Below the pieces are notes generated by a model that had not been told where the DNA came from, did no database searches, and saw only the letters and a program-made list of their open reading frames with translations. 64,000 nucleotides of DNA, taken from positions 32,001 to 96,000 of the IMG/VR virus record IMGVR_UViG_3300031555_001441; one strand, given 5' to 3'. The DNA is from a virus. Its lineage: Duplodnaviria; Caudoviricetes. Shown piece by piece: positions 23,918-56,314 of this stretch. The position numbers and the translations under genes are program-made. How positions within the stretch are numbered: the stretch's first letter is position 1; each line of letters opens with the position of its first letter.

Positions 23918-24589
23918 TTAGTTAAACGCAACTAACACGTCTTCATACTGAATATCTTGCTGTTCTGGTTTATTTTGTTGCGTCCAAATTGCTCCGAAGA
24001 TGTTCCACAAACACGCACGAATATGAGGTTCATCGTTATCTCCTCTACGTGCTTTCAGATAATGCCGAATTGCGCTATCAATGAAACTATGAAGCGGAAT
24101 ACCTTTTTCCCAGTTGTGCTCACCATATTTAACTGCTCCGCCTTCATATTGTTTTGCGGCATCAAGCACAGCCGACCACTTGTCTGGATAGAAAAGTTCA
24201 GTGAATCTATCTGCTGCAGAATATAACGCGTGGATATCACCTAGCTTCATATATTCTGCAAATTTACTGAGCACAGGATCGTCGTTTAGGAAAGTTTTTA
24301 TAACACTCAAAGGCATCAAATCACATCTACCTTTGCCTTCAACAATATCGCGAACAGCACCGCTTTCAAATACTCTGCGTTGCCCGCTATCTTTTATCTG
24401 GTTGACTCCATCAACAGACTCAGCAATATTTGAAAGTTCAGCTTCCGTAGCTTTAAAATCTTTGCAGAATTCTTCAACAGTACCATTCAGAAAATTTTTG
24501 TTTGCGTATATCGTCTCCATTGGATTAAATGTGCACGTATGTTTACATTCTTCCGTTTGATACTTTATGCAATCCAAACATTTCATCAA
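23918..24589 (-). CDS. dATP/dGTP diphosphohydrolase (DUF5664-like)
   Basis: SGAVRD...GKGRCDLMP...GAVKYGEHNWEKG...SAIRH...EPH...WN. Confidence 0.8.
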   Translation of the reverse strand: MMKCLDCIKYQTEECKHTCTFNPMETIYANKNFLNGTVEEFCKDFKATEAELSNIAESVDGVNQIKDSGQRRVFESGAVRDIVEGKGRCDLMPLSVIKTFLNDDPVLSKFAEYMKLGDIHALYSAADRFTELFYPDKWSAVLDAAKQYEGGAVKYGEHNWEKGIPLHSFIDSAIRHYLKARRGDNDEPHIRACLWNIFGAIWTQQNKPEQQDIQYEDVLVAFN

Positions 24590-24631
24590 TTGTATCTCCT
24601 CAAAATAAATATCTGTATGTATGTTTATGTA

Positions 24632-25810
24632 TTAAAAATGTGATTTCACTAGTCCGTTAACATTGAATATTTTCGCTTTGTTACCTTTGTTGAGTGTCAC
24701 TTGATTTGCAGTTATCTTCAATAACTTTTCAGGAACTGAACGCATACGTCCTTTGGGATGAGTGTATGCAACTTGACGGGCTACACTTTTAACACGGCCT
24801 AAATTCGATACCTGATACAGTCCCTCATACTCAACAACATCTTTCCAAATTTCGTTTGGAAGATTCAAAACAGTGCCGATATCATAATCAGGCTGAGAAC
24901 TTTCTACAAAATGTACACCTGCACATATGGTATGATTACGCACTGATGTAGATACATCTATTGTAGACACTCCGAAATGCGAAGCTGCAGCAGACTGCGA
25001 ATCAAACTCTTCTTGAGTCTCAATACAGCGTACTCTGACTTTTTGCTTTTCATTTGATACTGCGTTCCATCGAATGATATCTTCCTGTGTCCAATTAGTA
25101 CGAGTTCGGAGTCCCAACTGAATTGCATGCGCAACATTCTCTTTTGGTGTAACCCATTCGAGATTTTCAACACGATTGTTCTTCTTATTTCCATCTTTGT
25201 GATTGACTTGTGTTTTATTGTCAGGATTAGGAATGAACGCTTTAGCAACTAAGACATGCACCATCTTCATTTTTCCAAGATGTGTATTCTGACTTTCGCT
25301 ATCATACAAGCCTACTTGCAAATATCCATCTTTAGTTTCATCAAATGCTCGCATTATACCTCTAACGAGTCGATAACTGTTATTTTTAGCAGATACATAA
25401 TGATCTAAAGACCGAACGTCGCCATATCTAGATACTTGATAAATACCTTCATATCCTTCAATGTCCTTCCACGCAGGATCACTATAGTATTCGGACGATA
25501 ACATGAGATTGTCAGCTCTATTGTTATGATAGTCGCCGTCTATATGTGATACACATCTGTCTACTGGAATATTCAAAAAGAGAAGTGCAACTAACGGAGC
25601 AATATAGACGTTTGTATACTTGCCGTCTTTATGTAAAACAACATAATCTAACGAAGTTGATTCTGTATGCACTTTGATATACATTGAAGGTACTTTGGTG
25701 TGAGCCCCAGAAACATTAGTAAAATGTCGTTCACAGCTCTGCACTGTGCCGTAATTACTGATCATGTACAGACCTTCATATCCTGGTATAGATCGCCAAA
25801 TAATATCCAT
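24632..25810 (-). CDS. NUMOD4-HNH homing endonuclease (three NUMOD4 units)
   Basis: WxxIxGYEGxYxxSxxG three times; [13 protein letters not shown]...[18 protein letters not shown]. Confidence 0.88.
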
Positions 25811-25819
25811 CTACTCACC

Positions 25820-26779
25820 TCATAGATCGAATAGTTTTCTAGGTCTCTTCACTCGATTTTCATTGTATTTGTATCGAGTAGCCAACAACTTCTGAATGTT
25901 ACGCATTGTTACAACTACTCGAGCTGCTGACGATTCTTGAATCTGTTCAAGTGTAAATCCTAGAGCTTCTATCTCTTCCGTTAGTTTCTTGATGTTGTAT
26001 TCGTCAGCAGTCTCTAGAAAACTCATGTTTGATTTGCTTTTTGACGTTCGGTCTCGTTTAGATACCGAAATCACGCCGAATTGTGAAGACAATATCTTGC
26101 AGTATCCGGAAATAAGTCGATGGCTTATACTGTCCGCCGAATAGCACGGATACTTAGACAATGCATCCAGACTGGTCATACCATATAAGTGTGTCTTGAC
26201 ATCCGGATTAGAAGATTTCGCTATGTGATCAGCAACTTCTCTTAGATATATGTTCTTTTCAGCTTGAGAAACATCATTAGCAGGTGATATTCCACAGTAA
26301 TCCAGTTTCTCATTGTTGGAGCTCCTCCAATTTAACATGTTCTCAAGAGCTGAGAATGATTCCCCAAAATGGAAAACAGGCATCAACTTGTTAGGGGATT
26401 TGACTCGCTCTCTCATGTACAGATAGTTTTCCCACGATTTACGAGCTGACTCTTCGTAGTCTTCCTTACTTTTGGGCTGTCCGAATTTACCTGGGATAGT
26501 ATCCAGCTGAGCAAATATATCAATATCAGCATCAATGCTGTTTACATATTCAATATATTCATCAACAGTTGTATTTGCGTTTCCTGTATGGATACTAAAT
26601 GCTCCCGAATCAATGAAAAGAGATCTGCAGAATCCTTCGTGCTTCCATTGAATAGCTCTAGGAATAGCACTGCGATCTAACTGCGATATCAGTATGTCAA
26701 TCGGCTGAAAATCCGGCATCGCAAGCAGCATATCATGCATCTCTTGTGTTAATGATCCGCTAAAATAATATCTCTCCAT
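25820..26779 (-). CDS. dpdA: DpdA/TGT-like 7-deazaguanine transglycosylase
   Basis: FIDSGAFS, LDTIP, PVFH, HLYG, YSADS motifs of the TGT/DpdA fold. Confidence 0.7.
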   Translation of the reverse strand: MERYYFSGSLTQEMHDMLLAMPDFQPIDILISQLDRSAIPRAIQWKHEGFCRSLFIDSGAFSIHTGNANTTVDEYIEYVNSIDADIDIFAQLDTIPGKFGQPKSKEDYEESARKSWENYLYMRERVKSPNKLMPVFHFGESFSALENMLNWRSSNNEKLDYCGISPANDVSQAEKNIYLREVADHIAKSSNPDVKTHLYGMTSLDALSKYPCYSADSISHRLISGYCKILSSQFGVISVSKRDRTSKSKSNMSFLETADEYNIKKLTEEIEALGFTLEQIQESSAARVVVTMRNIQKLLATRYKYNENRVKRPRKLFDL

Positions 26780-27141
26780 TAGTATCTAACTCCTTGACGT
26801 TGATATGTAACATTTGTAGGTATAAGTCGTAATCTGAGATTATCAATACGATTGTTCCATATGTTGCCATCTATGTGATCAACCTGCGGAAAATAATAAA
26901 TACTTATCTCAGGATATCTAAAAGCTTGCATAACTAAATGCGATACGCTCGCATCGAATGAATGTCCTTTACGGTATAAAACAACGCTTACTGATCCTTT
27001 AGTATATTGAGGCTTCTTGATACCTTGAGGATCTTTACATCTGTGTGAACCACATAGACTTCTAACCTGTCCTAAATTTGATATTTCATATCGGTCCTCA
27101 AATCCGGGTATAGGTCTCCATTCAACTGCAACTTCAAACAT
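26779..27141 (-). CDS. Short NUMOD4-HNH endonuclease
   Basis: WRPIPGFEDRYEISNLG...VDHIDGNIWNNRIDNL. Confidence 0.8.
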   Translation of the reverse strand: MFEVAVEWRPIPGFEDRYEISNLGQVRSLCGSHRCKDPQGIKKPQYTKGSVSVVLYRKGHSFDASVSHLVMQAFRYPEISIYYFPQVDHIDGNIWNNRIDNLRLRLIPTNVTYQRQGVRY

Positions 27142-27186
27142 AATTGATCTCCTTGATATTTATTGATATGTACATTCTATAACGAT

Positions 27187-27966
27187 TCAAGATTTATATT
27201 TACAATTGAATACAAAATGAGCTAGAACTGCATGCGCTGCAACTCGGCTAGTATCAAGTTCAACTAAACATTGTAACGCATATTTTTTCACTAGTTCATT
27301 TCTAGTTGTTCCATATATGTATCTAATTACAAATATTGTAGGGCTCTCCGTATTGTCGTTGTAGTGCCCGAGTTTCCATGTTAAGTTAGATACATTATCT
27401 TTGAAGTTGATATTTGATAGATCATAGAAATAATCAAGCTGCGGTTGAGTCATCTGAAAAATAGCATCAATATCAGCAAATGATCGACACATTGTCCACA
27501 TGACAGAGTTCTTACGCAAAGCATAAAGTGTAGGATCTTTTTGAGCTCCGTAAGTCTCTAAATCAATCGGAGTAGGTTGACCTATACTTACACAAACACT
27601 TCGACTTAAAATAGTATCAGGAACACCTCGAATATTTCTGCAGGTAACTACAATATATACATTTGATTGAGGTTCTTCTAAAAATTTCAGAAGTGTATAT
27701 GCAGCTGCCGGCACACCAGTATCTAGATTCTCAATGCAGATAAGCATCGGATTTGACAAGTTCGCGACACTATTCATCATAGAACGAACCGCTGAAACAG
27801 TAGGCTCTACAAATGAAATGTCATCAATATTTAGCATTTTAGCATATTCACTTGCAAGATAAGATTTTCCGCAACCTGCCGGACCTTCTATCATAACGCT
27901 GTGACGATCCGAAGTCGCAACCTGACGTAATTCAGATACGGCTTCAGATTGATATATAAACTCCAT
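27187..27966 (-). CDS. Clamp-loader delta-prime-like AAA+ subunit
   Basis: GPAGCGKS, LLKFLEEP, TILSRS. Confidence 0.75.
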   Translation of the reverse strand: MEFIYQSEAVSELRQVATSDRHSVMIEGPAGCGKSYLASEYAKMLNIDDISFVEPTVSAVRSMMNSVANLSNPMLICIENLDTGVPAAAYTLLKFLEEPQSNVYIVVTCRNIRGVPDTILSRSVCVSIGQPTPIDLETYGAQKDPTLYALRKNSVMWTMCRSFADIDAIFQMTQPQLDYFYDLSNINFKDNVSNLTWKLGHYNDNTESPTIFVIRYIYGTTRNELVKKYALQCLVELDTSRVAAHAVLAHFVFNCKYKS

Positions 27967-28874
27967 CAAGATTCCTCCCACATCGGTATGTGTTGAAACT
28001 GTGTTAAACTGAACAAGTATATTAAACTATTGTATGGATCACCCACATTAGATCTAAGCTGACATAATTCGTGAAATGTATGCTCAAACATGTTGTAAAC
28101 ATCAGAACGAGTCCATCGGCTAGCGTATTCACGCAGCGGACTCGATGTGTATTTGTTATCTAATAGCTTATCTAATTCAATCAACATTGATAATATTGAA
28201 TAAAATATGTTATCAAGTTGAGGGCTATCCTCTAAGACCTTGATACATCTTTTGAAGCTTCGAGCAGCTACAGCTTGTTTTATCAGAGCATCAGAAGTTT
28301 CAGAAACTACACCAAATAAATGTGTTATATCTCTTTCATCAACTTTGAACAGATCTTGTTTATCTAAATATGTGAGTGATCGGCACATCATATTTGCTTG
28401 ATGATAATTGACTGCGTATTTAACTATATACGATATCAACATATCCGGAAGTTCGCTGTAATCACGTTTTAAGTATTTAGCTATAAAATGAGGAGCTACT
28501 GTATCAATACTCGTTGTTGTGTCTGGTAAGAATTTTTCCAGCTTAGCCGATTGTTTAGCATCGCTGTATATGCAAATCAGCGTACCCACTATCTTTAGTT
28601 TGCGTAACTTCTCAGCCACTATCTCATTTAGACCGGAAACAAACTCATCGTCATATCTTACAACATATACGCAAGGAATCAGCGGAACAAGATGCTTAAC
28701 AGACATCAAACTGATAACTTCAGACACTTTCTGCATCTCTTTGATGTCGCCATAATGTGTTTTTAATGCATCTATATATGCTGCTTTGATTCCATACTCA
28801 GGACCTGTAAGTATGTATAACGAATGCGGCTTACCTGTGAGTATCTCCGTTCCTACTTCTTGTAGTGATTTCAT
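27966..28874 (-). CDS. Clamp-loader delta (HolA)-like subunit
   Basis: LYILTGPEYGI N-terminus; adjacent to the delta-prime-like gene. Confidence 0.55.
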   Translation of the reverse strand: MKSLQEVGTEILTGKPHSLYILTGPEYGIKAAYIDALKTHYGDIKEMQKVSEVISLMSVKHLVPLIPCVYVVRYDDEFVSGLNEIVAEKLRKLKIVGTLICIYSDAKQSAKLEKFLPDTTTSIDTVAPHFIAKYLKRDYSELPDMLISYIVKYAVNYHQANMMCRSLTYLDKQDLFKVDERDITHLFGVVSETSDALIKQAVAARSFKRCIKVLEDSPQLDNIFYSILSMLIELDKLLDNKYTSSPLREYASRWTRSDVYNMFEHTFHELCQLRSNVGDPYNSLIYLFSLTQFQHIPMWEES

Positions 28875-29377
28875 TGCTGTTCTCCGAATAATTGTGCAAA
28901 ATGTGAAAATCTCAACAAATGACAGTGTTCGCCATGCCAAACAAGATCAATGTAATTGTACTCCCAGTTGTTTGAATCATTGTAATCATGAAGATATCTT
29001 CTGACGCAATTAGCGATGAATGACAAGTTTCTTCTTATCGAAAAATTATGTATATGTGGAATTTCAACAGCTGTTCCCTCGTGATCAAATGCAGGTATCA
29101 AACACCAGGTGTATTCTAGAAGTTGGGAGCCATCATCTACAAACAGTACAGGACGCTTAAATTTAGATGTTGCTTCCTCGCATATCTTCTTCCAATGATC
29201 ATACTGAAATACAACTTGAGGGATGCGCTTAACATGTGTTTTGCATTCGCCTAACCACTCCATGCCCTCCACGTCTCCGGGTAAACAGCTCCGAGCACCG
29301 CTTCCTGACACACGTTTCCAACCTAATGAGCCTGATATCTTGATTTCTTGTACTTCACTAAATGTCTTTGTATTCAT
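28871..29377 (-). CDS. Holliday-junction resolvase-like PD-(D/E)xK nuclease
   Basis: QE...SGSGA...PGDV...ECKT. Confidence 0.65.
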   Translation of the reverse strand: MNTKTFSEVQEIKISGSLGWKRVSGSGARSCLPGDVEGMEWLGECKTHVKRIPQVVFQYDHWKKICEEATSKFKRPVLFVDDGSQLLEYTWCLIPAFDHEGTAVEIPHIHNFSIRRNLSFIANCVRRYLHDYNDSNNWEYNYIDLVWHGEHCHLLRFSHFAQLFGEQQ

Positions 29378-30542
29378 CTGACAGATCGTCTCCTTCTGCA
29401 TCTGATGCATCTTTTCCTGAAATATCTGCTAGTATGTAATCTGTAAGTTTCTGATAATAATCAGGATGTGATTGTACATACTCTAATACTTTTGCAAAAC
29501 CATTTATTTTCAGCGGTTTACCTGATTCATCTTCGAGTATCTCTCCGTTTGACGGATCAGTGAGTGTAAACCAAGCACCTGCTTTGCGAATGATGTTATA
29601 CTTGCTTGTAGCAAGCTGCGTCATGTCCATATCAACACGAATTCCGGAATGCGCCATTAAATAATAGGACCCGTTGCGTCTATCATTTGGCGCGCTCTTT
29701 TGTTTTACTATTTTTGCAGTAACTTTATAACCTGCCGGATTCTCTATGTTCGCAGGCAGCTCATTGCCTAAGAAGTCTACCGGAGCGCCTATCTTGAATA
29801 ATATCCTCAACGAAGCATAAAATTTAACAGCTCTACCTCCCGGAGTATTTACCACATAAGGATTGTCCATGTTATCTCGTGTCTGATTAATAAATATCAT
29901 AGTTGTATCGTATCGAGTAAGAAGCGGTACAATCTTTCGACAAAATGTGGTAAGAAGTCCAGCAACAGGTGCTACAGTTCTTTCACCATACTTTTTTTCT
30001 AGCTCACTTTGTGTGACCAGCGAAGGAATGGAATCTAGTACAACTAGTCCAATTTCACCTGTTTCTACTAACTCTTGCAGTGTTTGCAGAAGAGTTTCAG
30101 CGACAACATCAGGCGGCTGCATTATATCAATCGCCTCAGGTTCAATACCAAGCGTGCTCGCCCAAGCGCTATCAAATGAATGCTCAAGATCCAAATAGAG
30201 AACTCGCTTTGGACCACGTTCGATAAGATCATCAAGCTCAATTGCTGCTGCTTTACTTTCGGCTGCCTTCTTCTGCAGAGCTTGAATCTGAACATCGTGT
30301 TCGCGGACAAATAGATCGTGTGCGTTCTTGCAAATATCTACAGCTGTTGTTGACTTACCTCCTGAAGGTTCACCAAAGAACTCTGTAATAGCACGCCGCG
30401 GAATGCCTCCATATGTTGAATAGTTAAGAAGCGGACTAGAAAAGGGAATCTTATCCCCGCGCTTTGTCATTGCAGCATCCATGAGTGATTCACAATTCCA
30501 AGCTTTTTTCCTTGAATTTATTATATCGGTATATCTTGACAT
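29358..30542 (-). CDS. recA: RecA/UvsX recombinase
   Basis: GGIPR, EFFGEPSGGKST, LVVLDS, FINQ, TPGGRAVKFYASLR. Confidence 0.92.
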   Translation of the reverse strand: MSRYTDIINSRKKAWNCESLMDAAMTKRGDKIPFSSPLLNYSTYGGIPRRAITEFFGEPSGGKSTTAVDICKNAHDLFVREHDVQIQALQKKAAESKAAAIELDDLIERGPKRVLYLDLEHSFDSAWASTLGIEPEAIDIMQPPDVVAETLLQTLQELVETGEIGLVVLDSIPSLVTQSELEKKYGERTVAPVAGLLTTFCRKIVPLLTRYDTTMIFINQTRDNMDNPYVVNTPGGRAVKFYASLRILFKIGAPVDFLGNELPANIENPAGYKVTAKIVKQKSAPNDRRNGSYYLMAHSGIRVDMDMTQLATSKYNIIRKAGAWFTLTDPSNGEILEDESGKPLKINGFAKVLEYVQSHPDYYQKLTDYILADISGKDASDAEGDDLSDEYKDI

Positions 30543-30551
30543 ATTTTACTC

Positions 30552-31151: not shown

Positions 31152-31152
31152 C

Positions 31153-33498
31153 TTAGTTACCTTCCTTCTTTATAGGTTGCTGACACAAATATGTAAGTGC
31201 TAACTCTTGCTGATATTGACTTACTTTTAACTCTGCGTTCATCTTAACAAGAATGTTTGCCAATCGCAAACAAATTGCAAGATGTGGTTCACTGTACTTG
31301 CTTATTTTATCAGCATAGTGAGCAGGTATCATTGTAGATTCAATGTCTTTCAACAAGATGTATTTAACAACATTCATGATGAACGAATGAAAACTTTCAA
31401 ACCATTTGACAAAGTTAACTCCTGAATTATAAACAACATTCAATATGCTTGCAACAGACTTGTTATCTCGCTTCGCATATGCAGTTAATAGTGCAAAACA
31501 ATCATCGTAATTAGGAAGATTGAGAGCAGCGGTTACATTCTCAGAAGTTAATTCATTGCTATAAGCGAGTGCCTTATCTAACAATGTGAGTGCATCTCGC
31601 ATACCGCCTGAAGCGAGTTTTGCAATTAAACTGATTGCATCTGGAACATACTCTATATTACGACCCTCAGCATTTTCACACTTGATAACGTGCAGAAGCC
31701 TGTTGTAAATACCCTCAGTACTTATTTTAGATAATTGAAATACCTGGACTCTGGATATGATGGTTGCAGGTATTTTCTCTGGGTTTGTAGTGGCAAACAT
31801 GAATACGCTCTTAGCCGGAGGGGCTTCGATAGTTGTAAGCATACTTTGCCAGGAAGCCGAACTGAACGCATGACAATTATGAACTAGCAGCTCATTTGCA
31901 AAATACGACGGATGTCCTGATATCTCCAGGTCATACATTGTTACATACTTTGAATGTAATTCTGAATCTTTGAAACAACTTCGGAACAATTCTTCATTAT
32001 TTCCGCGTTGGTAAATCTCAACACTGTCCACCCTAAATTGTTTAGACATTGCACTTTCTTTGCATCCAACAACCGATGCGATTTCATATTGTGATCTACA
32101 CCATCCACCTCTATTCCGAGAAATATTTCGGGATATGCTAGGTCGAGTGCGTATTTCGAAGGATAGTGATTTGGATTGTTTTTTCGATCTATACCCACAG
32201 TCACGGAGTACTCTAATTTCCATTGAGGTCCTAGCTGAGATTTGAGCAGCATCTGCGGCTTGGTGAAGTGTCCGTTCCCACCACGTGCAACAGGCGGCAT
32301 ATGTAAAGTACCATTTTGCTCTCGCGTCTGGATCATCTTCGCTACTACATCTGGATTGCTCATCGGATTGTGTTGTTTCATACGTTCTGATGCCTGTGGG
32401 CTGGGCCTTCCTATGCTGTAACTGGTTGTCAATGCATAACGACAAGTATTGGAACATGTCTTCTTGTTCAGATTGGAAGAGTTCACTACAAATGAATTTC
32501 CACACCAAGCGCACACACGAGTTATCACAAGTTTCGCAGTTTGTTTTCGCATCCGAATCAGATGATTCGCACATTTCGGAGAGCAGGCTGTTCGTGGATC
32601 GCTGTTTCGAATCTCCATCTGCTTCCCACAAACTGGACAGATAAACATATGCCAGTGTTTTGAATGTTCCTCCGATAATCGTTCCAAATTTGGATTCTGC
32701 GCTCTCCAAACTCCTCCGCACTGCGGTGAGCACGTGATTGAATTCACGCTCTGTGGTGTCCAGAACATCTTTCCACATATTGGACACTTTTTCTGTATCG
32801 AACCAGGATGACGATTCGACATTTCGTTGTGCATATAGATCGCACGACACGCCTTGCTGCATAGCACTTTCTGATCGCTGGCATAACGCACCTCGAACAT
32901 TTTGCCGCATTGTTTGCAACGACGTTGAATCATATAGTTGATCTCCTTGTTGTAAATATTTAGCAGGTATCCACCCGTCATTAGTAAAAAACAAGTGATC
33001 TTGAGTTGTTACTAATCTACGACCTCCTACTGATATAGATATAAGGTTTTCTGGTTTCACTCTGTTCTTGAATACCTGTGTCACCGTCGCTTGACCTGTC
33101 ATGTTATATATGAGGTCTCCCGGTTGAATATCCTTGATTTGTATTTTACCTGCAGGTGTTGATATCCATGTATTTCCAGGAAAACATTCATCGATGATGA
33201 ATACCTTGTAATCACATCCTACTGGATATGCTCTCGCTTGCTGCATTATATCACGAACAGTGTCAACACCACTGTGTGAGGCAGCATCTAGCTCAATAGG
33301 CTCTCCTTTGCCGTTGTTTAAAACACGAGCCATGCATTTTAACAAAGTGGTCTTACCACAACCTGCTGGTCCAATCAACAGGAAATTTCGAAGTTCTAAC
33401 GGCTTAGTTTCACATATGGATTTTAGTATCTTGACCACAGTTCCCTGCTCTGTAACATCATCCCATGTTTTTGGCCTGTATTTATTTGCTAAATTCAT
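31153..33498 (-). CDS. dnaX: Clamp loader gamma/tau subunit (DnaX) with intein
   Basis: LANKYRPKTW, GPAGCGKTT, ELDAASHSG, IIDE|intein|CH, ATTNPEKIPATIISR, GGMRDAL. Confidence 0.92.
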   Translation of the reverse strand: MNLANKYRPKTWDDVTEQGTVVKILKSICETKPLELRNFLLIGPAGCGKTTLLKCMARVLNNGKGEPIELDAASHSGVDTVRDIMQQARAYPVGCDYKVFIIDECFPGNTWISTPAGKIQIKDIQPGDLIYNMTGQATVTQVFKNRVKPENLISISVGGRRLVTTQDHLFFTNDGWIPAKYLQQGDQLYDSTSLQTMRQNVRGALCQRSESAMQQGVSCDLYAQRNVESSSWFDTEKVSNMWKDVLDTTEREFNHVLTAVRRSLESAESKFGTIIGGTFKTLAYVYLSSLWEADGDSKQRSTNSLLSEMCESSDSDAKTNCETCDNSCVRLVWKFICSELFQSEQEDMFQYLSLCIDNQLQHRKAQPTGIRTYETTQSDEQSRCSSEDDPDARAKWYFTYAACCTWWERTLHQAADAAQISARTSMEIRVLRDCGYRSKKQSKSLSFEIRTRPSISRNISRNRGGWCRSQYEIASVVGCKESAMSKQFRVDSVEIYQRGNNEELFRSCFKDSELHSKYVTMYDLEISGHPSYFANELLVHNCHAFSSASWQSMLTTIEAPPAKSVFMFATTNPEKIPATIISRVQVFQLSKISTEGIYNRLLHVIKCENAEGRNIEYVPDAISLIAKLASGGMRDALTLLDKALAYSNELTSENVTAALNLPNYDDCFALLTAYAKRDNKSVASILNVVYNSGVNFVKWFESFHSFIMNVVKYILLKDIESTMIPAHYADKISKYSEPHLAICLRLANILVKMNAELKVSQYQQELALTYLCQQPIKKEGN
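31876..33186 (-). mobile_element. 437-aa intein in the DnaX Walker B (DE|CH)
   Basis: CFPGNTWIST...TTQDHLFFT.DGW...MYDLEI...YFANELLVHN|C. Confidence 0.9.
31941..32933 (-). CDS. Zn-finger-repeat / Vsr-like (DUF559-type) endonuclease overprinted inside the dnaX intein in another frame
   Basis: Four CxxCG(K/N)..CSxxC units, ERMKQHNPM linker, LDLAYP..GIEVDGVDH...D..K..L...GWTVLRFTN; AAGGAGA RBS ahead of ATG 32933. Confidence 0.85.
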   Translation of the reverse strand: MIQRRCKQCGKMFEVRYASDQKVLCSKACRAIYMHNEMSNRHPGSIQKKCPICGKMFWTPQSVNSITCSPQCGGVWRAQNPNLERLSEEHSKHWHMFICPVCGKQMEIRNSDPRTACSPKCANHLIRMRKQTAKLVITRVCAWCGNSFVVNSSNLNKKTCSNTCRYALTTSYSIGRPSPQASERMKQHNPMSNPDVVAKMIQTREQNGTLHMPPVARGGNGHFTKPQMLLKSQLGPQWKLEYSVTVGIDRKNNPNHYPSKYALDLAYPEIFLGIEVDGVDHNMKSHRLLDAKKVQCLNNLGWTVLRFTNAEIMKNCSEVVSKIQNYIQSM

Positions 33499-34324: not shown

Positions 34325-34330
34325 AGTAGA

Positions 34331-39276: not shown

Positions 39277-39720
39277 TCAACATTTTGCAGTGTAAGTTGC
39301 ATATGAATCGGCATTTTCTCTTAATCTCATCTCTGTTACAACTACTCCAGGTGAGTATGCATCTAAAGTAGCTTGCAACTGCAATGCTATTTGTTCGCAT
39401 ATAGTTTCAGCACTTACTACACTGCTATACGCCTTTGTGGGAACACCTAATCCGTCAAATGTAGCTGCGACGGATTGTGCTTGTAGATCTTTGTGATAGT
39501 ATAAAAATGTATGATTTGGAACACATGCGCTTAAGTGAGCGCGCAGCATCTTGAATTCATATACAAGTGATGACGCATCGGACTGCAACGTGTTCTGAAC
39601 TGTAGCTTCAACTAAATATCGACAGCCTTGTAACATGTACTTATGAGATAAGATATCTTGTACTAGATACACACAGTCAAACTCTATTCGTTGTGTAACT
39701 GTATTATTTTTTGTGATCAT
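39277..39720 (-). CDS. QueD/PTPS-like T-fold protein lacking the Zn-binding histidines
   Basis: VTQRIEFD...QGCRYLVEATV...VYEFKMLR...NHTFL...SAETI...MRLRENADSYATY follows the QueD layout. Confidence 0.55.
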   Translation of the reverse strand: MITKNNTVTQRIEFDCVYLVQDILSHKYMLQGCRYLVEATVQNTLQSDASSLVYEFKMLRAHLSACVPNHTFLYYHKDLQAQSVAATFDGLGVPTKAYSSVVSAETICEQIALQLQATLDAYSPGVVVTEMRLRENADSYATYTAKC

Positions 39721-41016: not shown

Positions 41017-41241
41017 TTAAATTATTTTGTTTGTCTTAACAGATGAGCTCTCATCTATCACTGTTGCATATTCAGCTGTTCTAGTAAGCGCATTGAATCC
41101 TTCATCGTATCCGTGCTGATATCCATCTGAGTATCCGTCCGAATAACCAGAAGCATACGCCTTATGAAGCTCCTGTTTGAAATTATCTGTTTTGCAATAA
41201 TGAGCACAAAAACGACTGAAAAGTCTTTCACGTAGTTTCAT
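41017..41241 (-). CDS. Small protein with GYxxG repeats
   Basis: SGYSDGYSDGYQHGYDEG. Confidence 0.5.
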   Translation of the reverse strand: MKLRERLFSRFCAHYCKTDNFKQELHKAYASGYSDGYSDGYQHGYDEGFNALTRTAEYATVIDESSSVKTNKII

Positions 41242-41461
41242 CAGAACGATTCCTCCACAATTTATAAAGTTTGATGATGTGAACAATTACGCATACACCA
41301 TTCAATAACCATACACTAATAGATCCAATCAAAAATCCATACACTACAAAAACAATCGAACCTAGTATGTTTATGCGCCGAATATTTACTTCAGATTTCT
41401 GTAAAAATGATAACAGCACTAAACATGTTGCAGCTATTCCTACAAGTTCAATCCAATTCAT
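41228..41461 (-). CDS. Small membrane protein (YgjV-like)
   Basis: ELVGIAAT..LLSF..IRRINILGS..FVVYG..WLLN. Confidence 0.65.
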   Translation of the reverse strand: MNWIELVGIAATCLVLLSFLQKSEVNIRRINILGSIVFVVYGFLIGSISVWLLNGVCVIVHIIKLYKLWRNRSDETT

Positions 41462-41796
41462 TGCTTGTCTGTGTTGAGTTCTGCATTCCATGCATCTACA
41501 TCAACACCTTCCTCCTTCAATTTGTATTTTGCTAACCACACATACTTATCTGGTGCTTCATAATGTTCAATCAATTTTTTATATTCTGCTCTAACTGACT
41601 CCCAAAAATCACGAAGACGTTTCTTCTTCCAACCTTGCGTTACCATTAAAGTATACAGAACCATTGCATCTAAGTTTGAAATCAACTCATCAGAAGCCTC
41701 AATTATCTGTCTATTGACTTCAATATCAATCGCCTTCTGTTCATCTGCAGTAAATTCGGCACCATATACCTTACCCTTATATTTCTTTACAAACAT
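41458..41796 (-). CDS. Hypothetical protein
   Basis: 112-aa ORF in operon. Confidence 0.6.
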   Translation of the reverse strand: MFVKKYKGKVYGAEFTADEQKAIDIEVNRQIIEASDELISNLDAMVLYTLMVTQGWKKKRLRDFWESVRAEYKKLIEHYEAPDKYVWLAKYKLKEEGVDVDAWNAELNTDKQ

Positions 41797-48677: not shown

Positions 48678-48694
48678 ATAATTGAACAAAAAAG

Positions 48695-48729: not shown

Positions 48730-48741
48730 GTTGTATGAGAA

Positions 48742-49710: not shown

Positions 49711-49756
49711 GTGTGAGTACCTCCTTCATATTTGTTGTGTATTCTATAACGATTCA

Positions 49757-49788
49757 TAAAAAAAGAACTGAGTTTTCTCAGTTCTTTC
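49757..49788 (-). terminator. Intrinsic terminator
   Basis: AAAGAACTGAG-tttt-CTCAGTTCTTT. Confidence 0.65.
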
Positions 49789-49789
49789 A

Positions 49790-50239: not shown

Positions 50240-50250
50240 GTTTGTTCTCC

Positions 50251-50634
50251 TTAGTTTACGGCATTCGGCAACTTACCACGTTTATCACCTGTAAGTTTGC
50301 TGTATTTAAAGTTATTGCGTAAATTAACGTAGTAGAAATGTCCCTTGCTAGGAGCTGTCACCCATTTTCTATATAGAGATATCGGCACATCATATAATAC
50401 GTATATATCACCTGGACCACCCGTTTTGTCTGCTTTGAACTGAACATATACGTCACCTGTTTTATCGTGTCTATCTCGTATGTTGATGTTGTAACCCCAT
50501 ACATTGCTGGATTTAACTCTTACAATGTGCGTCATTATATCTTTTGTCGAGATCGACGCTTGTATTATTGATTTTCTTTCAGCCGAATCGCAGAAGCAGA
50601 TTTCTGCAATTGAAGCTCGAATCAATCTTTTCAT
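50251..50634 (-). CDS. KTSC-domain protein (MKRLIRAS N-terminus)
   Basis: VKSSNV..Y...YVQFK...Y..VP...Y.....APSKGHF. Confidence 0.75.
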   Translation of the reverse strand: MKRLIRASIAEICFCDSAERKSIIQASISTKDIMTHIVRVKSSNVWGYNINIRDRHDKTGDVYVQFKADKTGGPGDIYVLYDVPISLYRKWVTAPSKGHFYYVNLRNNFKYSKLTGDKRGKLPNAVN

Positions 50635-50647
50635 TTAATTTAATTCC

Positions 50648-51136
50648 TTATGTAGATGTAAATATTATATGCAATTGAGCTGCGATGTCATCTGCAGTCA
50701 TTTCGTTTGATGCAGATACTATATCAACTGCAATTGAGATAAATTGTTCTCGTTTTTCATGTGTGCGTTGAATCAACTCTGGTGTTATCTTGAACAAAGG
50801 ATATTTGTTTGGTCCCGTCTGTGTTGCTTTGAAATATCCAAGATCCGCACGCGCATCTTTCAACGATTCGCCTAACTCTTTTCTGAATAACTTCTCATAT
50901 GTATTGATGGATAACTTCTTGTTATTCGGCTTCACCTCATAATCATTGATGATGGATACGAATTCGGACAATTCGTCTATCCAGTGATTCAAATCTCGAG
51001 TGCTATCATCATATATCAATACTTTCAGAAGATGCTCGTGTATAGCAGGCATTAGATGCTCAATGCGATCCTCTACTATCTTGCGAGGATGTGCGAATGC
51101 GAATATATTTTGTTTTAATCGTATAAGTCGTTTCAT
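50648..51136 (-). CDS. Hypothetical protein (DUF29-like)
   Basis: IHEHLLKV...HWIDEL. Confidence 0.5.
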   Translation of the reverse strand: MKRLIRLKQNIFAFAHPRKIVEDRIEHLMPAIHEHLLKVLIYDDSTRDLNHWIDELSEFVSIINDYEVKPNNKKLSINTYEKLFRKELGESLKDARADLGYFKATQTGPNKYPLFKITPELIQRTHEKREQFISIAVDIVSASNEMTADDIAAQLHIIFTST

Positions 51137-51156
51137 CTGTGCATCTCCATCCTTTA

Positions 51157-51975
51157 TTATAAAAGGTCCATCATTTGTTGACCGGCAGTGGTTTGATTGC
51201 GTAGCTGCTGCGTTTGAGAGATATTAAGACTCAATTCAGGATGTTCGTTGTAACATCGTTGAATCCAGTATGTCTCTCTGTTCAGCAAGTTCTCCGTCAA
51301 CGAAACTATCTCGATTATCTCAAACAAATAATCTGTAATATTATCGACCGGGAAGCGATCCGTTTTCATGTGCTCTGCCCATCTGAACATAGGCATATAT
51401 TTTGTTTGGCCTACATAAAACTCTCGTGTAGATTTCTTTGTTATCTTATATATGTATCCAGCTATTTTTGATGTGAACATATCGCGTGTAACAAAGAACT
51501 CACTGTCATCTTCTGGTTTCAATTTGAGTTTTTCGTCATACTTGTATTGATCTTTACACTTTGTGCAACAGAACCGCTTGTATTTGTAGTCCTGAATATT
51601 GTAGAAATCATGACGAATCTCATAGTCCTCAAAGGCGATAGGCCTGCTGTAATATGTGGTCACATGTGCGTGACAGTTATCGCATTCAAACTCAATTCGG
51701 TTGAAATATCGCTCAGTTGTAAAGCAATGTTCCCCGATTATGATGCAATACATATCGCCGGGCTGAAGTTTCTTGCTGTATGCAAAAGGAATATTACCGT
51801 ATGTATCTCGTATTATAGATTTAAATTGATCTCGACTGTCGCACACTATCACATCCATCAATAACTCGATGTTAGATCCCTTACTAGCACTTGAGTAAAA
51901 TCCAAAGGCGATCTCATCAGTTGACGAGATCGGCTCTTCAGGCACTTGATAGATTCTGTATATTATTTCAAGCAT
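51157..51975 (-). CDS. Zn-finger + GIY-YIG endonuclease
   Basis: CDNC/CCTKC; GYIYKIT...YVGQT...RWAEH...RETYWI. Confidence 0.75.
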   Translation of the reverse strand: MLEIIYRIYQVPEEPISSTDEIAFGFYSSASKGSNIELLMDVIVCDSRDQFKSIIRDTYGNIPFAYSKKLQPGDMYCIIIGEHCFTTERYFNRIEFECDNCHAHVTTYYSRPIAFEDYEIRHDFYNIQDYKYKRFCCTKCKDQYKYDEKLKLKPEDDSEFFVTRDMFTSKIAGYIYKITKKSTREFYVGQTKYMPMFRWAEHMKTDRFPVDNITDYLFEIIEIVSLTENLLNRETYWIQRCYNEHPELSLNISQTQQLRNQTTAGQQMMDLL

Positions 51976-51976
51976 A

Positions 51977-52249
51977 TTATTCGGACGCTTCCTCTATACT
52001 GTCAATGGCTGCTTGAAGCGTATCCGCGGCATCTTCAAGCGAAGAGAGCGCTTCCTCCAGGTTGGAAACTGCGGCATCTGCTTTTTCATATCTTTCAGAA
52101 TTCTGAAAACTTTCAGGAATGTTGTCGCGACACTCTTCCTCTTCATCCTTTATGGATTCAAGATCATCTTTGGTAGATTCAATATCTCCGAGTATACTTT
52201 CAATTGCACTGATTACATCAGCAAGTGATTTACGTCTTACATCGTTCAT
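51977..52249 (-). CDS. Small coiled-coil phage protein
   Basis: MNDVRRK...DEEEECRDNIPE. Confidence 0.65.
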   Translation of the reverse strand: MNDVRRKSLADVISAIESILGDIESTKDDLESIKDEEEECRDNIPESFQNSERYEKADAAVSNLEEALSSLEDAADTLQAAIDSIEEASE

Positions 52250-52677
52250 TTTATATTCTCCTCATTTTTATGTATTTCATATTCACTGATAGTAGGCCAA
52301 TTTTCATCAGGCCAATCCATTCCAGGGTCATCTGCCCAAGGTTGATATGATTCTTCTTCATGAATGTAGTCAGCATACAACTGCTTCAACGAATCATCTG
52401 ATTCTGAATCCTTCTGGGCAGCTCGAATCAATGTGTCATCCGAATTGACAACTGATCGAGTTGTAGACACATCGTAGTATTCATCTTCTTCTGTATAAGG
52501 ATCAATTAGATCGCTTGGATCTTCCTCAAAGTATGGACAATGTAATACACCACCAAACTCTTCATATTCTGCAAACTCGAGATCCGTCATCAGATCCTCT
52601 TTAGTGCACTCTGAATAGCCCACACTGTAATCTTTAAACAGGTGTTTGCACCTACCGCACTTGATGTACTCAGTCAT
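52246..52677 (-). CDS. Hypothetical Cys/acidic protein
   Basis: ORF with AAGGAG RBS. Confidence 0.55.
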   Translation of the reverse strand: MTEYIKCGRCKHLFKDYSVGYSECTKEDLMTDLEFAEYEEFGGVLHCPYFEEDPSDLIDPYTEEDEYYDVSTTRSVVNSDDTLIRAAQKDSESDDSLKQLYADYIHEEESYQPWADDPGMDWPDENWPTISEYEIHKNEENIK

Positions 52678-52695
52678 TGTATCGTTCTCCTTCGC

Positions 52696-52902
52696 TCATC
52701 TCCCGCACAAGCTATCGTACTGCTTCTTTGTCATCAACACGATGTCATCTGAATGCTCTGCACGTCCGGTTTGAATCAGGTCTCGAACCTCTTCTTCGTT
52801 TATCTTAGTATCATTAAACAGGGCTACCAGATTCATCGAATACTCTCCACCGATAACTCGTGTGAATTCTATCATCATTATATGTTCAGTCATGTTGATC
52901 AT
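52696..52902 (-). CDS. Small hypothetical protein
   Basis: ORF with AAGGAG RBS. Confidence 0.55.
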   Translation of the reverse strand: MINMTEHIMMIEFTRVIGGEYSMNLVALFNDTKINEEEVRDLIQTGRAEHSDDIVLMTKKQYDSLCGR

Positions 52903-52908
52903 CGCTCC

Positions 52909-53196
52909 TTATCTATCGCCGAAGTATTCACCGTTCTCAATGTCGCGGACGCATCTGAGCAGTTCCTCAAGTGAGTTGCTGTTCATGATATCTTCCCACT
53001 CTCGAGGGCTGAGGACCTGACATTCTCTGTATCCGACGCGGCAGATGGTTGTCCACATCCAATCCTGACCCAGGTCAAGATAGACATCTTCGACTGTGTA
53101 AGTTGCGTTGTGCTTGCTGTCGTAAGTGAGCATCCGAGCTACTATCTGTAACTTCTTGTATTCTGGTTCGGTTTCTTTAACGATTCTGTATTTCAT
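52909..53196 (-). CDS. Small hypothetical protein
   Basis: ORF with GGAGG RBS. Confidence 0.6.
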   Translation of the reverse strand: MKYRIVKETEPEYKKLQIVARMLTYDSKHNATYTVEDVYLDLGQDWMWTTICRVGYRECQVLSPREWEDIMNSNSLEELLRCVRDIENGEYFGDR

Positions 53197-53197
53197 G

Positions 53198-53374
53198 TTA
53201 GTTGTCCTCCTTATAGATGAGATCGGCGAGTAGCTTGTCTACGGGCTTGCCGGTTGATTTTGATTCTTCAAATAACTTATTAGCGATTTTCTCGCTCTCA
53301 TTTCGCGTGTAGTTACCGACATCTTGAAGAATGTCGATAACTAACGCGAAGTTCTTAGTTGTTTTCAGCTTCAT
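53198..53374 (-). CDS. Small hypothetical protein (58 aa, MKLKTTKNFALV...)
   Basis: Own translation; GAGG RBS; fills the gap in the operon. Confidence 0.5.
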   Translation of the reverse strand: MKLKTTKNFALVIDILQDVGNYTRNESEKIANKLFEESKSTGKPVDKLLADLIYKEDN

Positions 53375-53603
53375 GTTCTACCTCGTCTCTGATTTCGAGG
53401 TCTATGTCTATGATTTCGTCCATTTCGACTCCGAGCTCTTCGAGCTCATGAATCAACTTTGTGACCTCCTGGCCGCCTTCAGATGTCTGATAATAATGAC
53501 GAGCAGCTTCTTTGAACTGATCAATTGTGCAATCGATAGCGTTGAGTCTCATCTGCTCCATCATGTAGTTGGTTCTGAGAACCATTCGGCTCAACGTCAT
53601 CAT
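53355..53603 (-). CDS. Small hypothetical protein
   Basis: ATG 53603 after GGAGG; overlaps the upstream stop. Confidence 0.55.
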   Translation of the reverse strand: MMTLSRMVLRTNYMMEQMRLNAIDCTIDQFKEAARHYYQTSEGGQEVTKLIHELEELGVEMDEIIDIDLEIRDEVEHEAENN

Positions 53604-53887
53604 ATCGCCACCTCCATTTCTACGATCTCTGAAGTAGATTTCCAGAAGTCTGTGTTCTCGGGATTCTTGTATGCGTAAGCTCTGACAACGTCGCACTTGC
53701 GAGTGTAACCATATGCTTTAACTGCAGCAGCATGAAGTTCTTTGTACATCCCGGTCTTCTTCGGATGGTCACCTAAGTAAGCGATAAGAGCTTCGTTTCT
53801 GCCGATGTAAGCGATTGCAGTCTCGCCTGCGAAGTTCGGATTCTCTAAAGTTGCGATAGATGTCTCTTTCACCATGTAATACTTCAT
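53600..53887 (-). CDS. Small hypothetical protein
   Basis: ORF with AAGGAG RBS. Confidence 0.6.
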   Translation of the reverse strand: MKYYMVKETSIATLENPNFAGETAIAYIGRNEALIAYLGDHPKKTGMYKELHAAAVKAYGYTRKCDVVRAYAYKNPENTDFWKSTSEIVEMEVAI

Positions 53888-54006
53888 CTTGTAAACTCCT
53901 TCTCTTGAAGAATTGATTTATTTTACAAGTATATTATAAGCCCTTCTGATTAAATCAGTATTATATATTTATTAAATTTTTATAAATTTTAAAGATCAAT
54001 ACATAG

Positions 54007-54033
54007 AAAAAGCTCCGATGTATTTCGGAGCTT
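54007..54033 (-). terminator. Terminator after amidase
   Basis: AAAGCTCCGA...TCGGAGCTTT. Confidence 0.65.
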
Positions 54034-54037
54034 TGTT

Positions 54038-55510
54038 TCATATTACTCTATTGAGTGCTTTATCATACGACCAAGGCTGTATTTGTTCAAATGCATGTGC
54101 AATAGCAAACACATCTTCATCTTGATACTGCTTTCCGATGATCTGCATCCCTACCGGAAGCCCATCGTTTGTCATACCTGCCGGAACAGATGCAGCTGGA
54201 TATCCGACGAAGTTGACCAGGGGTGTTTCGGCAAATGCAATGAATCCTATATTTGGATCAATTGCAACTCCGTCTACTTCCTTTACACATCCGTTGTCTT
54301 CATTGCGAAGCGGCGGACATATTGATGTCGGAGAGACGATTGCGTAATATCCTTGATCAAATACATCTTCAAAGTTGTCAAGAATATCTGTCCGAATCTC
54401 ATTGAACGTGCGCATGCTGTGAATATCAGTATCATATGCGATTTTATTGAATTTTATAAACTCTTCTGGTAGCTCATCTCTGTGATCCTTAACCAGATCG
54501 AGTCCTTGACCTCTCCATAACTCTAAGTCGAGAGCGGTATCAAGCGATATTGACCATGCCCAGCAATACATTATACTGTATGCGGGAAACTTGAAGTTGA
54601 AATTGACGAAGTCTACGTGTGCTCCAGCTTCTTCAAGTCGTTTAGCTGCATTGAATACTATTTCACGAACTTCACTATCCGTTGAGAAAAGATTGAAGTC
54701 ATATGTAAATGCGATCTTCTTTCCCTTGATCGGCTTCTTCATCAACTCTAAGAAATCCTTATTGTTGTTGATCGGAAGACTGATCGGATCTCTCGGATTG
54801 TATCTCGCCATTCCGTTGAGCATCTGCGCGCTATCTTCAACTGTTTTTGTAAGTGCACCATTGAAACAATATGGATGTGTAGCTGACCAACCATCTGGCC
54901 TACAGTAACTTGGAATAGTTCCCAGCGATGCTTTGAAGCCGAAAAGATTGCACCAGCCTGCGGGAATTCGTATAGATCCACCTGCATCTCCACCTTCCCC
55001 AAGAAGAATGAGACCGTCTGCAACAGCTGCTGCGGTACCGCCAGAAGATCCACCTGACGTTCTTCCGGTATCAAATGGATTCTTAGTAGCACCATACATC
55101 TTGTTGATGCAAGCTCCACTGAATCCAAATGCCGGCGCATTTGTTTTTCCTACCGCTATAGCACCAAATTCTTTTGCAGCGGTGTAAAACATAGAATCTG
55201 CATCGTCAACTGCAACGAGTGATTTTACGCCGCCGTGAGAATTTGTCCACCCCTTCTTAGATGGTAAGAAATCTTTAAGGGCAACAGGAACTCCAGCAAA
55301 AGGTCCACAGTATTCTCCTGACTGAATACGCTTTTCCAGCTGACGTGCTTCCTCCATTGCATCCTCAATCTTTGTGTAGGTAAATGCATTGATTGACGGA
55401 TTTCTAGCTTGTATGCGTTCTGCAAAGTAGTTGATTACTTCCGTAGGTGAAACTTGTTTAGTGTTAACAAGCTCACCTAACTGTACTCCGGATAATCTTT
55501 CCAGCTCCAT
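54038..55510 (-). CDS. Amidase-signature family enzyme (GatA-like fold)
   Basis: GVPVALKD, GKTN, GGSSGG, DAGGSIRIPA (intact Lys-Ser-Ser triad), GYPAASVPAG..GLPVGMQ. Confidence 0.9.
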   Translation of the reverse strand: MELERLSGVQLGELVNTKQVSPTEVINYFAERIQARNPSINAFTYTKIEDAMEEARQLEKRIQSGEYCGPFAGVPVALKDFLPSKKGWTNSHGGVKSLVAVDDADSMFYTAAKEFGAIAVGKTNAPAFGFSGACINKMYGATKNPFDTGRTSGGSSGGTAAAVADGLILLGEGGDAGGSIRIPAGWCNLFGFKASLGTIPSYCRPDGWSATHPYCFNGALTKTVEDSAQMLNGMARYNPRDPISLPINNNKDFLELMKKPIKGKKIAFTYDFNLFSTDSEVREIVFNAAKRLEEAGAHVDFVNFNFKFPAYSIMYCWAWSISLDTALDLELWRGQGLDLVKDHRDELPEEFIKFNKIAYDTDIHSMRTFNEIRTDILDNFEDVFDQGYYAIVSPTSICPPLRNEDNGCVKEVDGVAIDPNIGFIAFAETPLVNFVGYPAASVPAGMTNDGLPVGMQIIGKQYQDEDVFAIAHAFEQIQPWSYDKALNRVI

Positions 55511-55513
55511 AGA

Positions 55514-56251
55514 TTACACCTTCACATTGTATTTGTTGAGATATTCCGCACCGACATCTTCTTTCTTCCACTTCCTCGCTATCTTGTAGCCTAAAGGGGA
55601 GAAGATGGCTTCTATAGCGAGTTCCAAAAGCATCATCAAGAATGAACATACAAACACCTGCTGAATTGTCCATCCAAAGAAGATGAATGATACAAACAAT
55701 GCAAATATGAAGTTATCTACAAACTGACCGGCAGCTGTTGAAATGAAACTTCTTACAGCAAATCCGCCGAAAGTATCTTTCTTGTCAACAAGTTTACCTA
55801 TCCCTTTGTTGACAAGAGAATTAACTAGACCTCCAAGGAACATCGCCGCCGCTGAACCGACAACTACATACCATGTTGATGCAAACGTGGAATCCAGCGC
55901 AGCGTTGATAGCAGCACTGATTTCAGGGGTTGCTCCGGCATAACTAGATGCCCAGATTCCGGGAATAGAAACAATTGCAGCATATAGAAGTGCAGTAAGC
56001 AAACTTATTATTGTTGCAATTGTGTTGAGTATGGTTGCAGCTTTTGGTCCAAAGCGTTTGCAAACTGCATCCATACACAGAAATGATATCCATGAAACAA
56101 ATATGCCTGCAGTCGATGCTAACCACGGAAGGTTGAAAATCGACTTGTTGGCCAGTAAATTCATGGATATCACGGATAGAATGAATACTGCTGTTACGAT
56201 ACCTGGTATCGCTCTCATAGTGTCTTTGACTTGTGTTAACAATTTCTTCAT
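55514..56251 (-). CDS. VUT/YhhQ-family (queuosine precursor) transporter
   Basis: MNLLANK, ISFLCMD...FG, VGS..A...VNS, RSFIST..GQFVDN.IF; ATG 56251 after GGAGG. Confidence 0.85.
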   Translation of the reverse strand: MKKLLTQVKDTMRAIPGIVTAVFILSVISMNLLANKSIFNLPWLASTAGIFVSWISFLCMDAVCKRFGPKAATILNTIATIISLLTALLYAAIVSIPGIWASSYAGATPEISAAINAALDSTFASTWYVVVGSAAAMFLGGLVNSLVNKGIGKLVDKKDTFGGFAVRSFISTAAGQFVDNFIFALFVSFIFFGWTIQQVFVCSFLMMLLELAIEAIFSPLGYKIARKWKKEDVGAEYLNKYNVKV

Positions 56252-56260
56252 GTTAACTAC

Positions 56261-56314
56261 CTCCATTATTTTTATTTTAAGACGGGCTGTCAGGATGTTA
56301 CAAAACCGTCTTAT
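56261..56314 (-). promoter_or_regulatory. Candidate preQ1-I-like riboswitch
   Basis: AAGACGG/CCGTCTT stem with GGUU...CCC at the stem-loop junctions, then an A-rich tail running into the transporter RBS. Confidence 0.4.

Follow-up and report, generated by a model that had tools for sequence, protein, structure and literature searches.

The Streptococcus phage Dp-1 encodes a QueF-like protein (gp01), QueC, QueD, QueE, FolE, QueT and DpdA (gp07) within one cluster, and dPreQ1 has been measured in its DNA (PMC6884629). Its DpdA is the closest characterised counterpart of the one in the stretch analysed here, a window of 64,000 nt that covers bases 32001-96000 of a single 144,269-bp IMG/VR record (IMGVR_UViG_3300031555_001441; 96% complete according to CheckV). 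The window contains a DpdA-like gene together with a gene for a transporter of the VUT/QPTR (YhhQ) family that is coupled to an amidase gene. Relatives of this phage share with Dp-1 the gene order queF-queC-queD-queE-folE and a precursor transporter. In contrast to Dp-1, the five synthesis genes are missing from the window phage, whether by loss or from the outset, and its transporter belongs to the VUT/QPTR family, whereas that of Dp-1 is an ECF-type QueT. Moreover, it adds an amidase and a riboswitch-like leader, and about 27 kb separate its dpdA from the transporter.

In Clostridioides difficile, a preQ1-I riboswitch fronts the queK-qrtT-queL operon, which encodes a transporter and enzymes that turn imported compounds into preQ1 (Yuan et al. 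2019, as summarised in PMC11477304). The operon follows the same logic as the window cassette, with a preQ1-sensing leader, an importer and a conversion to preQ1, in a bacterium that has the tRNA guanine transglycosylase (TGT) and QueA without the de novo pathway. However, as described there, it relies on another transporter family and on a nucleoside hydrolase and a radical-SAM lyase, with no amidase-signature hydrolase, and is bacterial only. Because both the enzymes and the transporter differ from those of C. difficile, a different imported compound is expected for the window cassette.

The E. coli preQ0/preQ1 importer YhhQ/QPTR has the Vut_1 family in common with the window's VUT protein; the latter scores below the TIGR00697 cut-off and is stably paired with an amidase in one operon, which YhhQ is not. 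The amidase, in turn, shares its catalytic triad with an aryl acylamidase of Bacillus sp. (PDB 4yj6), whose studied substrates are xenobiotic aryl acylamides and which has no known tie to 7-deazaguanines, a transporter or a riboswitch. Hutinet et al. (2019) proposed that phages with DpdA only may rely on uptake, and found that YhhQ correlated with no phage group (PMC6884629). The source of the base in such phages has been a loose end since then, and the cassette offers a concrete, testable supply route. DpdA-based modification, DpdA-only phages and occasional phage homologues of YhhQ are already published; in contrast, the amidase step is undescribed in open-access text. There, we found no description of an amidase in phage or bacterial 7-deazaguanine pathways, in queuosine salvage or behind preQ1 riboswitches, in line with the first-pass annotation of this sequence, which knew of no amidase-signature enzyme in the described dpd pathways.

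The cassette, its leader and DpdA

The evidence supports a tie between the VUT-amidase pair and 7-deazaguanine metabolism, because the pair stands behind a preQ1-I-like leader, co-occurs with DpdA, and lies in or beside que clusters in eight phages. The cassette is probably a module that salvages preQ1 or another 7-deazaguanine and feeds it to DpdA. Every gene named in the first-pass annotation is present at its given position, on the minus strand. That annotation had suggested that the phage imports a precursor rather than making it; the presence of DpdA, the absence of the synthesis genes and the pair's link to 7-deazaguanines support this, with the import and the imported compound both presumed.

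The cassette is bounded, running from the preQ1-I-like leader through VUT and the amidase to a terminator-like hairpin (Table 1), and its two genes are as tightly coupled as had been described. The VUT open reading frame (ORF) spans 55514-56320, and its real start is read as the ATG at 56251, which is preceded by a Shine-Dalgarno (SD) sequence. The transporter matches Vut_1 with 67.5 bits (cut-off 27.2, E = 2.2e-18) and TIGR00697 with 34.9 bits, which is under the equivalog cut-off of 50.95. By its sequence, it is a divergent QPTR subfamily whose substrate need not be preQ0 or preQ1 itself. A tblastn search with the VUT protein found no match in GenBank phages.

The amidase aligns with profile positions 1-444 of the 445 in PF01425 (290 bits), its Lys/cis-Ser/Ser triad is intact (K79, S155 and S179, invariant in 34 homologues), and its best solved relative is the aryl acylamidase 4yj6 (E = 1.4e-106, aligned over residues 7-482). 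It scores 360 bits against the aryl acylamidase versus 160 bits against GatA, and its match to TIGR00132 is weak. The enzyme looks active, given its intact triad, and amine-releasing, since the amine is the product of interest of its closest structural match, the aryl acylamidase. Further, the G+C content is 0.42-0.43 over window positions 52001-56000, compared to about 0.37-0.38 in the neighbouring stretches, which is consistent with a bacterial origin of the cassette.

The leader consists of a P1 hairpin (GACGG/CCGUC), a long loop opening with UUUUGUA, an A-rich tail and a GGAGG SD sequence just before the VUT start; the hairpin sits in the roughly 80 nt that separate the upstream ORF from the VUT ATG. 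A covariance model (R1) was built from 29 homologous leaders, leaving out those of the window phage and of its 94% relative, and its single significant match in the 144-kb genome is the VUT leader. In a sequence-only alignment (A5) of 31 distinct leaders, chosen by a hairpin filter, P1 covaries: its four consistently aligned pairs are 98.4% paired, compared to 68.9% in shuffles and no more than 58% of cells in slid controls. Double-sided changes number 38 versus 12 in shuffles and affect three of the four pairs, and the invariant positions of the alignment are G10, T11/T12 and C33/C34. The regions upstream of 91 VUT homologues were scanned for hairpins and judged by eye, and about 83 share one design: a P1 helix, a loop opening with GUU, CC preceding the 3′ strand, and an A-rich tail leading into the SD sequence. 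Leaders from Treponema and Mollicutes align end to end with the Rfam PreQ1 family (RF00522), which is the best Rfam match at that position in six loci. Rfam does not detect the window leader, which is therefore classified as a putative preQ1-I-like variant, with a presumed ligand. In the long-loop phage leaders, a UCCU in the loop can pair with the AGGA of the SD sequence, and one relative has UCAU and AUGA instead; this hints at a pseudoknot that would sequester the SD sequence in this type of leader.

The gene that the cassette would supply is DpdA/TGT-like, as first annotated. Its product matches phrog_887 (‘queuine tRNA-ribosyltransferase’, E = 1.2e-43), is 40% identical to Dp-1 gp07 (E = 6e-49) and is 44% identical to a homologue in Bacillus phage Flasso. 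Pfam gave no TGT match, and phmmer against PDB sequences returned nothing, so that a fold search was needed. With an AlphaFold (AF2) model built on 20 homologues (pLDDT 86.1), the top 50 Foldseek matches were all TGT or archaeosine TGT structures (probability 1.0, E about 1e-8, TM about 0.6). Two aspartates never vary among 20 DpdA homologues, D57 (in FIDSGAFS) and D216 (in SADSISHR); by motif resemblance, they are tentatively likened to Asp102 and Asp280 of TGT.

The genome was screened with Pfam over all 170 ORFs of at least 70 aa, in three alignment-wrapped scans; the all-ORF screen was used because a Pfam profile search of the phage's own genome was insensitive, missing a PTPS match that hmmscan had detected. 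Together with targeted searches, the screen found no QueC, GTP_cyclohydroI (FolE), Radical_SAM (QueE) or QueF in the entire 144,269-bp record, so that an absence first noted for the window holds for the whole genome. The same screen found no ArcS, Gat-QueC or QueF-L.

Carrier phages and bacteria

More than 100 homologues of the amidase were found at 60-73% identity, many of them on phage-sized contigs. In the contexts looked up, VUT immediately precedes the amidase, and one contig has radical-SAM and FolE genes nearby. An alignment-based scan of IMG/VR yielded 17 amidase-bearing records that were searched whole, with a 6-kb fragment (L011) left out of this search. DpdA is present in 14 of the 17 records. 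None of the six with a completeness of 90% or more lacks it, and the three records without it are fragments (8-25% complete). VUT is present in 16. FolE and QueC occur in eight records and adjoin VUT or the amidase, in the layouts queF-queC-queD-queE-folE-VUT-amidase or VUT-queF-queC-queD-queE-folE-...-amidase, and Pfam confirms QueF, QueC, QueD, QueE and FolE in these clusters. The window phage and five others, three of which are 100% complete, have the VUT-amidase pair and DpdA only; the amidase is kept in five near-complete (96-100%) genomes that lack QueC, including that of the window phage. Among phages, the pair has diverged to 48-66% identity yet is intact.

Most amidase-bearing phages form a single related group, with DpdA 52-73% identical. 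In the amidase tree, two phage copies (L015 and L090) fall inside the bacterial clade. In L015, the amidase is nested among bacterial copies, and a DpdA of another lineage (31% identity) follows it about 1.2 kb downstream; this is an independent association of DpdA with the amidase. L090 is a phage-like contig (JBGVOD010000040.1, 130 kb) with a long-loop leader, VUT and amidase, which was binned in a Lachnospiraceae metagenome-assembled genome (MAG) whose QueC and QueF are located on another contig. The genes that L090 shares with the phages were considered as a modification module and rejected as such, being DNA polymerase A and unannotated phage genes. Separately, the que clusters of several relatives (L021:8391-8768, L019:2648-3139) include a gene for a small protein (about 125 aa) whose phosphoribosyltransferase motif is weak (PF00156, E = 1e-4, under the cut-off), and a dCMP/cytidine deaminase-family gene; the window phage has neither.

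A bacterial scan, restricted to one genome per species, returned 80 loci. The carriers are rumen and gut Lachnospiraceae, Erysipelotrichaceae, Oscillospiraceae, other Clostridia, Treponema and Mollicutes, and include four cultured isolates. In 63 of 72 bacterial loci, VUT immediately precedes the amidase, and three more copies are non-adjacent. More than 60 rumen or gut bacterial genomes thus have the operon that the phage carries behind its leader. No conserved bacterial neighbour names the substrate; the other surrounding genes are unrelated and encode ABC transporters, GGDEF-EAL, MatE, UvrD, TetR and fumarase. The queuosine pathway was genotyped in 25 carrier genomes, four of them from cultured isolates. 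TGT and QueA are present in 25 of 25, while true QueC and true QueF are each present in two, which are the same two genomes. Because TGT and QueA are present while 23 of the 25 have neither QueC nor QueF, these carriers need external preQ1 for queuosine and depend on its import. The first-pass annotation had envisaged that the pair might be a bacterial cassette unlinked to dpdA with an unrelated substrate; the pair is a bacterial cassette, but it is linked to preQ1.

A proposed salvage route and its alternatives

In the proposed mechanism, DpdA would exchange guanine for a preQ1-type 7-deazaguanine in the phage DNA after replication. The phage appears unable to make this base, and its probable hosts (rumen Firmicutes) would mostly be unable as well, which is why a self-contained salvage cassette would be carried. 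The transporter would bring in a precursor from rumen or gut fluid, and the amidase would hydrolyse the precursor's amide bond to yield a base usable by both the host TGT and DpdA. The riboswitch-like leader would shut the cassette off once the 7-deazaguanine pool is full, probably by hiding its ribosome-binding site.

In the simplest chemistry, an N-acyl-preQ1 (for example formyl- or acetyl-preQ1) and water would be converted to preQ1 and a carboxylic acid. The unmasking of an N-acyl-preQ1-type precursor is favoured because the amide hydrolysis that directly yields preQ1 is a de-acylation of the aminomethyl nitrogen, because the nearest relative is an aryl acylamidase, and because N-formyl-preQ1 is natural; nonetheless, this choice of substrate is tentative and somewhat doubtful. 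Natural N-formyl-preQ1 (fdPreQ1) is documented only in the DNA of one phage (PMC10516641). On a wider scale, the bacterial and phage loci may represent an undescribed form of queuosine-precursor salvage, in which an amide-conjugated 7-deazaguanine in the rumen or gut would be imported by a divergent QPTR and processed by a dedicated amidase, under preQ1-I variants missed by Rfam, and which large phages would have captured at least twice for use with DpdA; we regard this as quite possible, although short of probable. It would point to an enzyme step and a metabolite in the exchange of queuosine precursors in rumen and gut, where most sampled carriers cannot make preQ1, and would add riboswitch variants that current models miss. 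Phages and hosts would then compete for one scavenged micronutrient, and the amidase substrate, if identified, would extend the known circulating queuosine precursors (preQ0, preQ1, queuine and queuosine).

Several points weigh against the salvage reading. We infer the ligand of the leader, the substrates of the transporter and the amidase, and the base in the DNA. RF00522 has no match in window positions 53800-58200 at E-values up to 5, and no riboswitch was found at the Rfam gathering threshold in the window or in 20 bacterial loci, with sub-threshold PreQ1 matches appearing only in E-value mode; even the best bacterial leaders score 20.7-29.2 bits against RF00522, below its gathering cut-off of 39. 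Because Rfam misses the window leader and the best bacterial copies are under the cut-off, the ligand could be a different 7-deazaguanine. The hairpin filter by which the leaders were chosen inflates their apparent pairing. To our knowledge, no natural rumen pool of N-acyl-preQ1 has been described. Because most amidase-bearing phages are related, the co-occurrence of DpdA and the amidase is partly shared descent. No DpdA is detectable in the MAG that contains L090. Finally, the amidase is retained by relatives with the full de novo pathway, where pure salvage can account for it only as redundant.

The cassette could instead mainly serve tRNA, providing preQ1 to the host TGT for queuosine on tRNAs with GUN anticodons during infection, including a phage tRNA. 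The bacterial operon clearly serves tRNA queuosine, as TGT and QueA accompany it in every sampled carrier, and the phage's own six tRNAs include one tRNA-Asn(GUU) with a queuosine-target anticodon (L003:15762-15837; genome position about 111.7 kb). However, DpdA is found with the cassette in all six near-complete relatives, and eight relatives have the pair in or beside Dp-1-like que clusters, which in Dp-1 accompany DNA modification. Although tRNA and DNA uses are compatible, a mainly tRNA-directed cassette is unlikely.

It is quite unlikely that the amidase converts 7-amido-7-deazaguanine (ADG), or the archaeosine (G+) amidine base from methanogen tRNA, to 7-carboxy-7-deazaguanine (CDG), with DpdA inserting CDG or a derivative. 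ADG and G+ are real 7-deazaguanines that bear an amide and an amidine, and aryl carboxamides are commonly hydrolysed by amidase-signature enzymes. Likewise in favour of this conversion, some viral DNAs contain dCDG and dADG, and it is unsettled which substrate DpdA3 uses (PMC10516641). In contrast, CDG, like ADG, would be useless to the 23 of 25 bacterial carriers that have TGT and QueA without QueC and QueF; for them, the ADG-to-CDG step put forward in the first-pass annotation would be a dead end. Moreover, the window DpdA is closest to that of Dp-1, whose DNA contains dPreQ1, and relatives encode a preQ1-making QueF, while in those with QueC an ADG-to-CDG enzyme would undo QueC's work.

A recently captured host operon, acting on a substrate unrelated to 7-deazaguanines and connected to DpdA through shared ancestry only, would fit the raised G+C content over 52-56 kb, the wide occurrence of the pair as a bacterial operon and the relatedness of most carrier phages. 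This is very unlikely, however, as the preQ1-I-like leader is kept in both bacteria and phages, and the pair lies in or beside que clusters in eight phages and has stayed intact through its divergence. Least credible is an amidase that acts as a GatA-like glutaminase and gives ammonia to QueC or to a preQ0 amidotransferase, ammonia supply being the other role initially suggested for it: GatA is an amidase-signature protein, TIGR00132 matches weakly and phage 9g uses a Gat-QueC fusion (PMC6884629), but the amidase persists without QueC in the five near-complete phages and in 23 of 25 bacterial genomes, no ArcS, Gat-QueC or QueF-L was found in the phage genome, and the protein is far nearer to the aryl acylamidase than to GatA.

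Further features of the window and the genome

Table 1. Positions of the cassette, the DpdA-like gene and neighbouring features, numbered from the first base of the window.
Feature	Position	Strand	Basis
preQ1-I-like riboswitch leader	56257..56313	-	covariance model R1, 49.7 bits, E 4.7e-8
VUT/QPTR (YhhQ-family, COG1738) transporter, 245 aa	55514..56251	-	PF02592 Vut_1
Amidase-signature enzyme, 490 aa, starting 3 nt past the VUT stop	54038..55510	-	PF01425, E 4.8e-86
Terminator-like hairpin, 10 bp stem and T-rich tail, directly past the amidase stop	54009..54034	-	consensus scan only
DpdA-like DNA guanine transglycosylase, 319 aa	25820..26779	-	phrog_887, similarity to Dp-1 gp07, TGT fold
dNTP diphosphohydrolase-like protein	23918..24589	-	PF18909 dGTP_diPhyd_N, E 1.3e-13, residues 138-212 only
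HNH/NUMOD4 homing endonuclease, between dpdA and the diphosphohydrolase-like gene	24632..25810	-	PF07463 E 2.7e-36, PF13392 E 1.5e-18
Second small HNH/NUMOD4 endonuclease, directly upstream of dpdA	26779..27141	-	PF07463 E 9e-10, PF13392 E 2.8e-7
His-less T-fold (PTPS/QueD-like) protein	39277..39720 (ORF to 39759; likely start 39720)	-	PF01242, E 3.1e-7

Two further genes had been counted in a dispersed DNA-modification set, a membership that the analysis supports for neither. The T-fold gene is not confined to salvage-type phages but also occurs in de novo-type relatives with a genuine QueD, and only 2 of 17 relatives have the diphosphohydrolase-like gene, directly downstream of dpdA in both. 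The T-fold protein scores above the PTPS gathering threshold, but reaches only 20.6 bits against the QueD equivalog TIGR03367 (cut-off 89.25). It is indeed His-less, with QGC at the position of QueD's HGH zinc motif. BLAST found no similarity between it and the true QueD of a relative, and phmmer against PDB sequences returned nothing. As a substitute for QueD it was rejected, because it has no similarity to true QueD and co-occurs with real QueD in relatives. About 1.3 kb from the T-fold gene, an Imp-YgjV (PF10688) match (window 41017-41491, minus strand) spans two short overlapping ORFs with internal stops, and is a broken or split second membrane protein.

The gene annotated as a dNTP diphosphohydrolase is present, but its match to PF18909, the family of MazZ-type dATP/dGTP diphosphohydrolases (51.2 bits, cut-off 27), is partial and covers only the C-terminal 75 residues. 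As in the two relatives, it follows dpdA in the window, but with an HNH endonuclease gene inserted in between; it counts as an accessory neighbour, and its membership of the pathway is unsupported. A PurZ/Z-genome reading of this gene was rejected, as the phage genome has no adenylosuccinate-synthetase/PurZ, the partner seen in Z-genome phages. HNH/NUMOD4 genes flank dpdA on both sides, and similar HNH genes are scattered in the que clusters of relatives (cluster c2).

Nearly all genes of the phage are on the minus strand. The Pfam screen identified a T4-like capsid, portal and baseplate; a family-A DNA polymerase, a clamp loader with an intein, RecA, ThyX and RecU; CHAP and Amidase_2 lysins; and BspA-type LRR and Listeria-Bacteroides repeat proteins. 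From this gene content, the phage appears to be a large myovirus, probably with a Gram-positive gut or rumen host. A megablast search with 16 kb found no close relative among GenBank phages. The intein (Intein_splicing Pfam match) is carried by a clamp-loader/DnaX-like gene at window 31153-33498 on the minus strand.

An RT-2 RNA (RF03077) is located at window 10119-10352 on the minus strand (Rfam 102 bits, E = 1.6e-22), and the phage genome also encodes a reverse transcriptase (RVT_1) and several LRR/BspA proteins; this combination suggests a diversity-generating retroelement or another reverse transcriptase-associated system. Outside the window, two paralogues of 616 and 651 aa are encoded at genome positions 137305-139155 and 142120-144075 (L121 and L120). 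Both have Mom-family (PF25680) matches, one above the cut-off (29.3 bits) and one below it (20.9 bits), and the Pfam screen placed two DUF7487 proteins, possibly identical to these paralogues, in the same genome region. The Mom-like and DUF7487 matches hint at a second, adenine-directed DNA modification.

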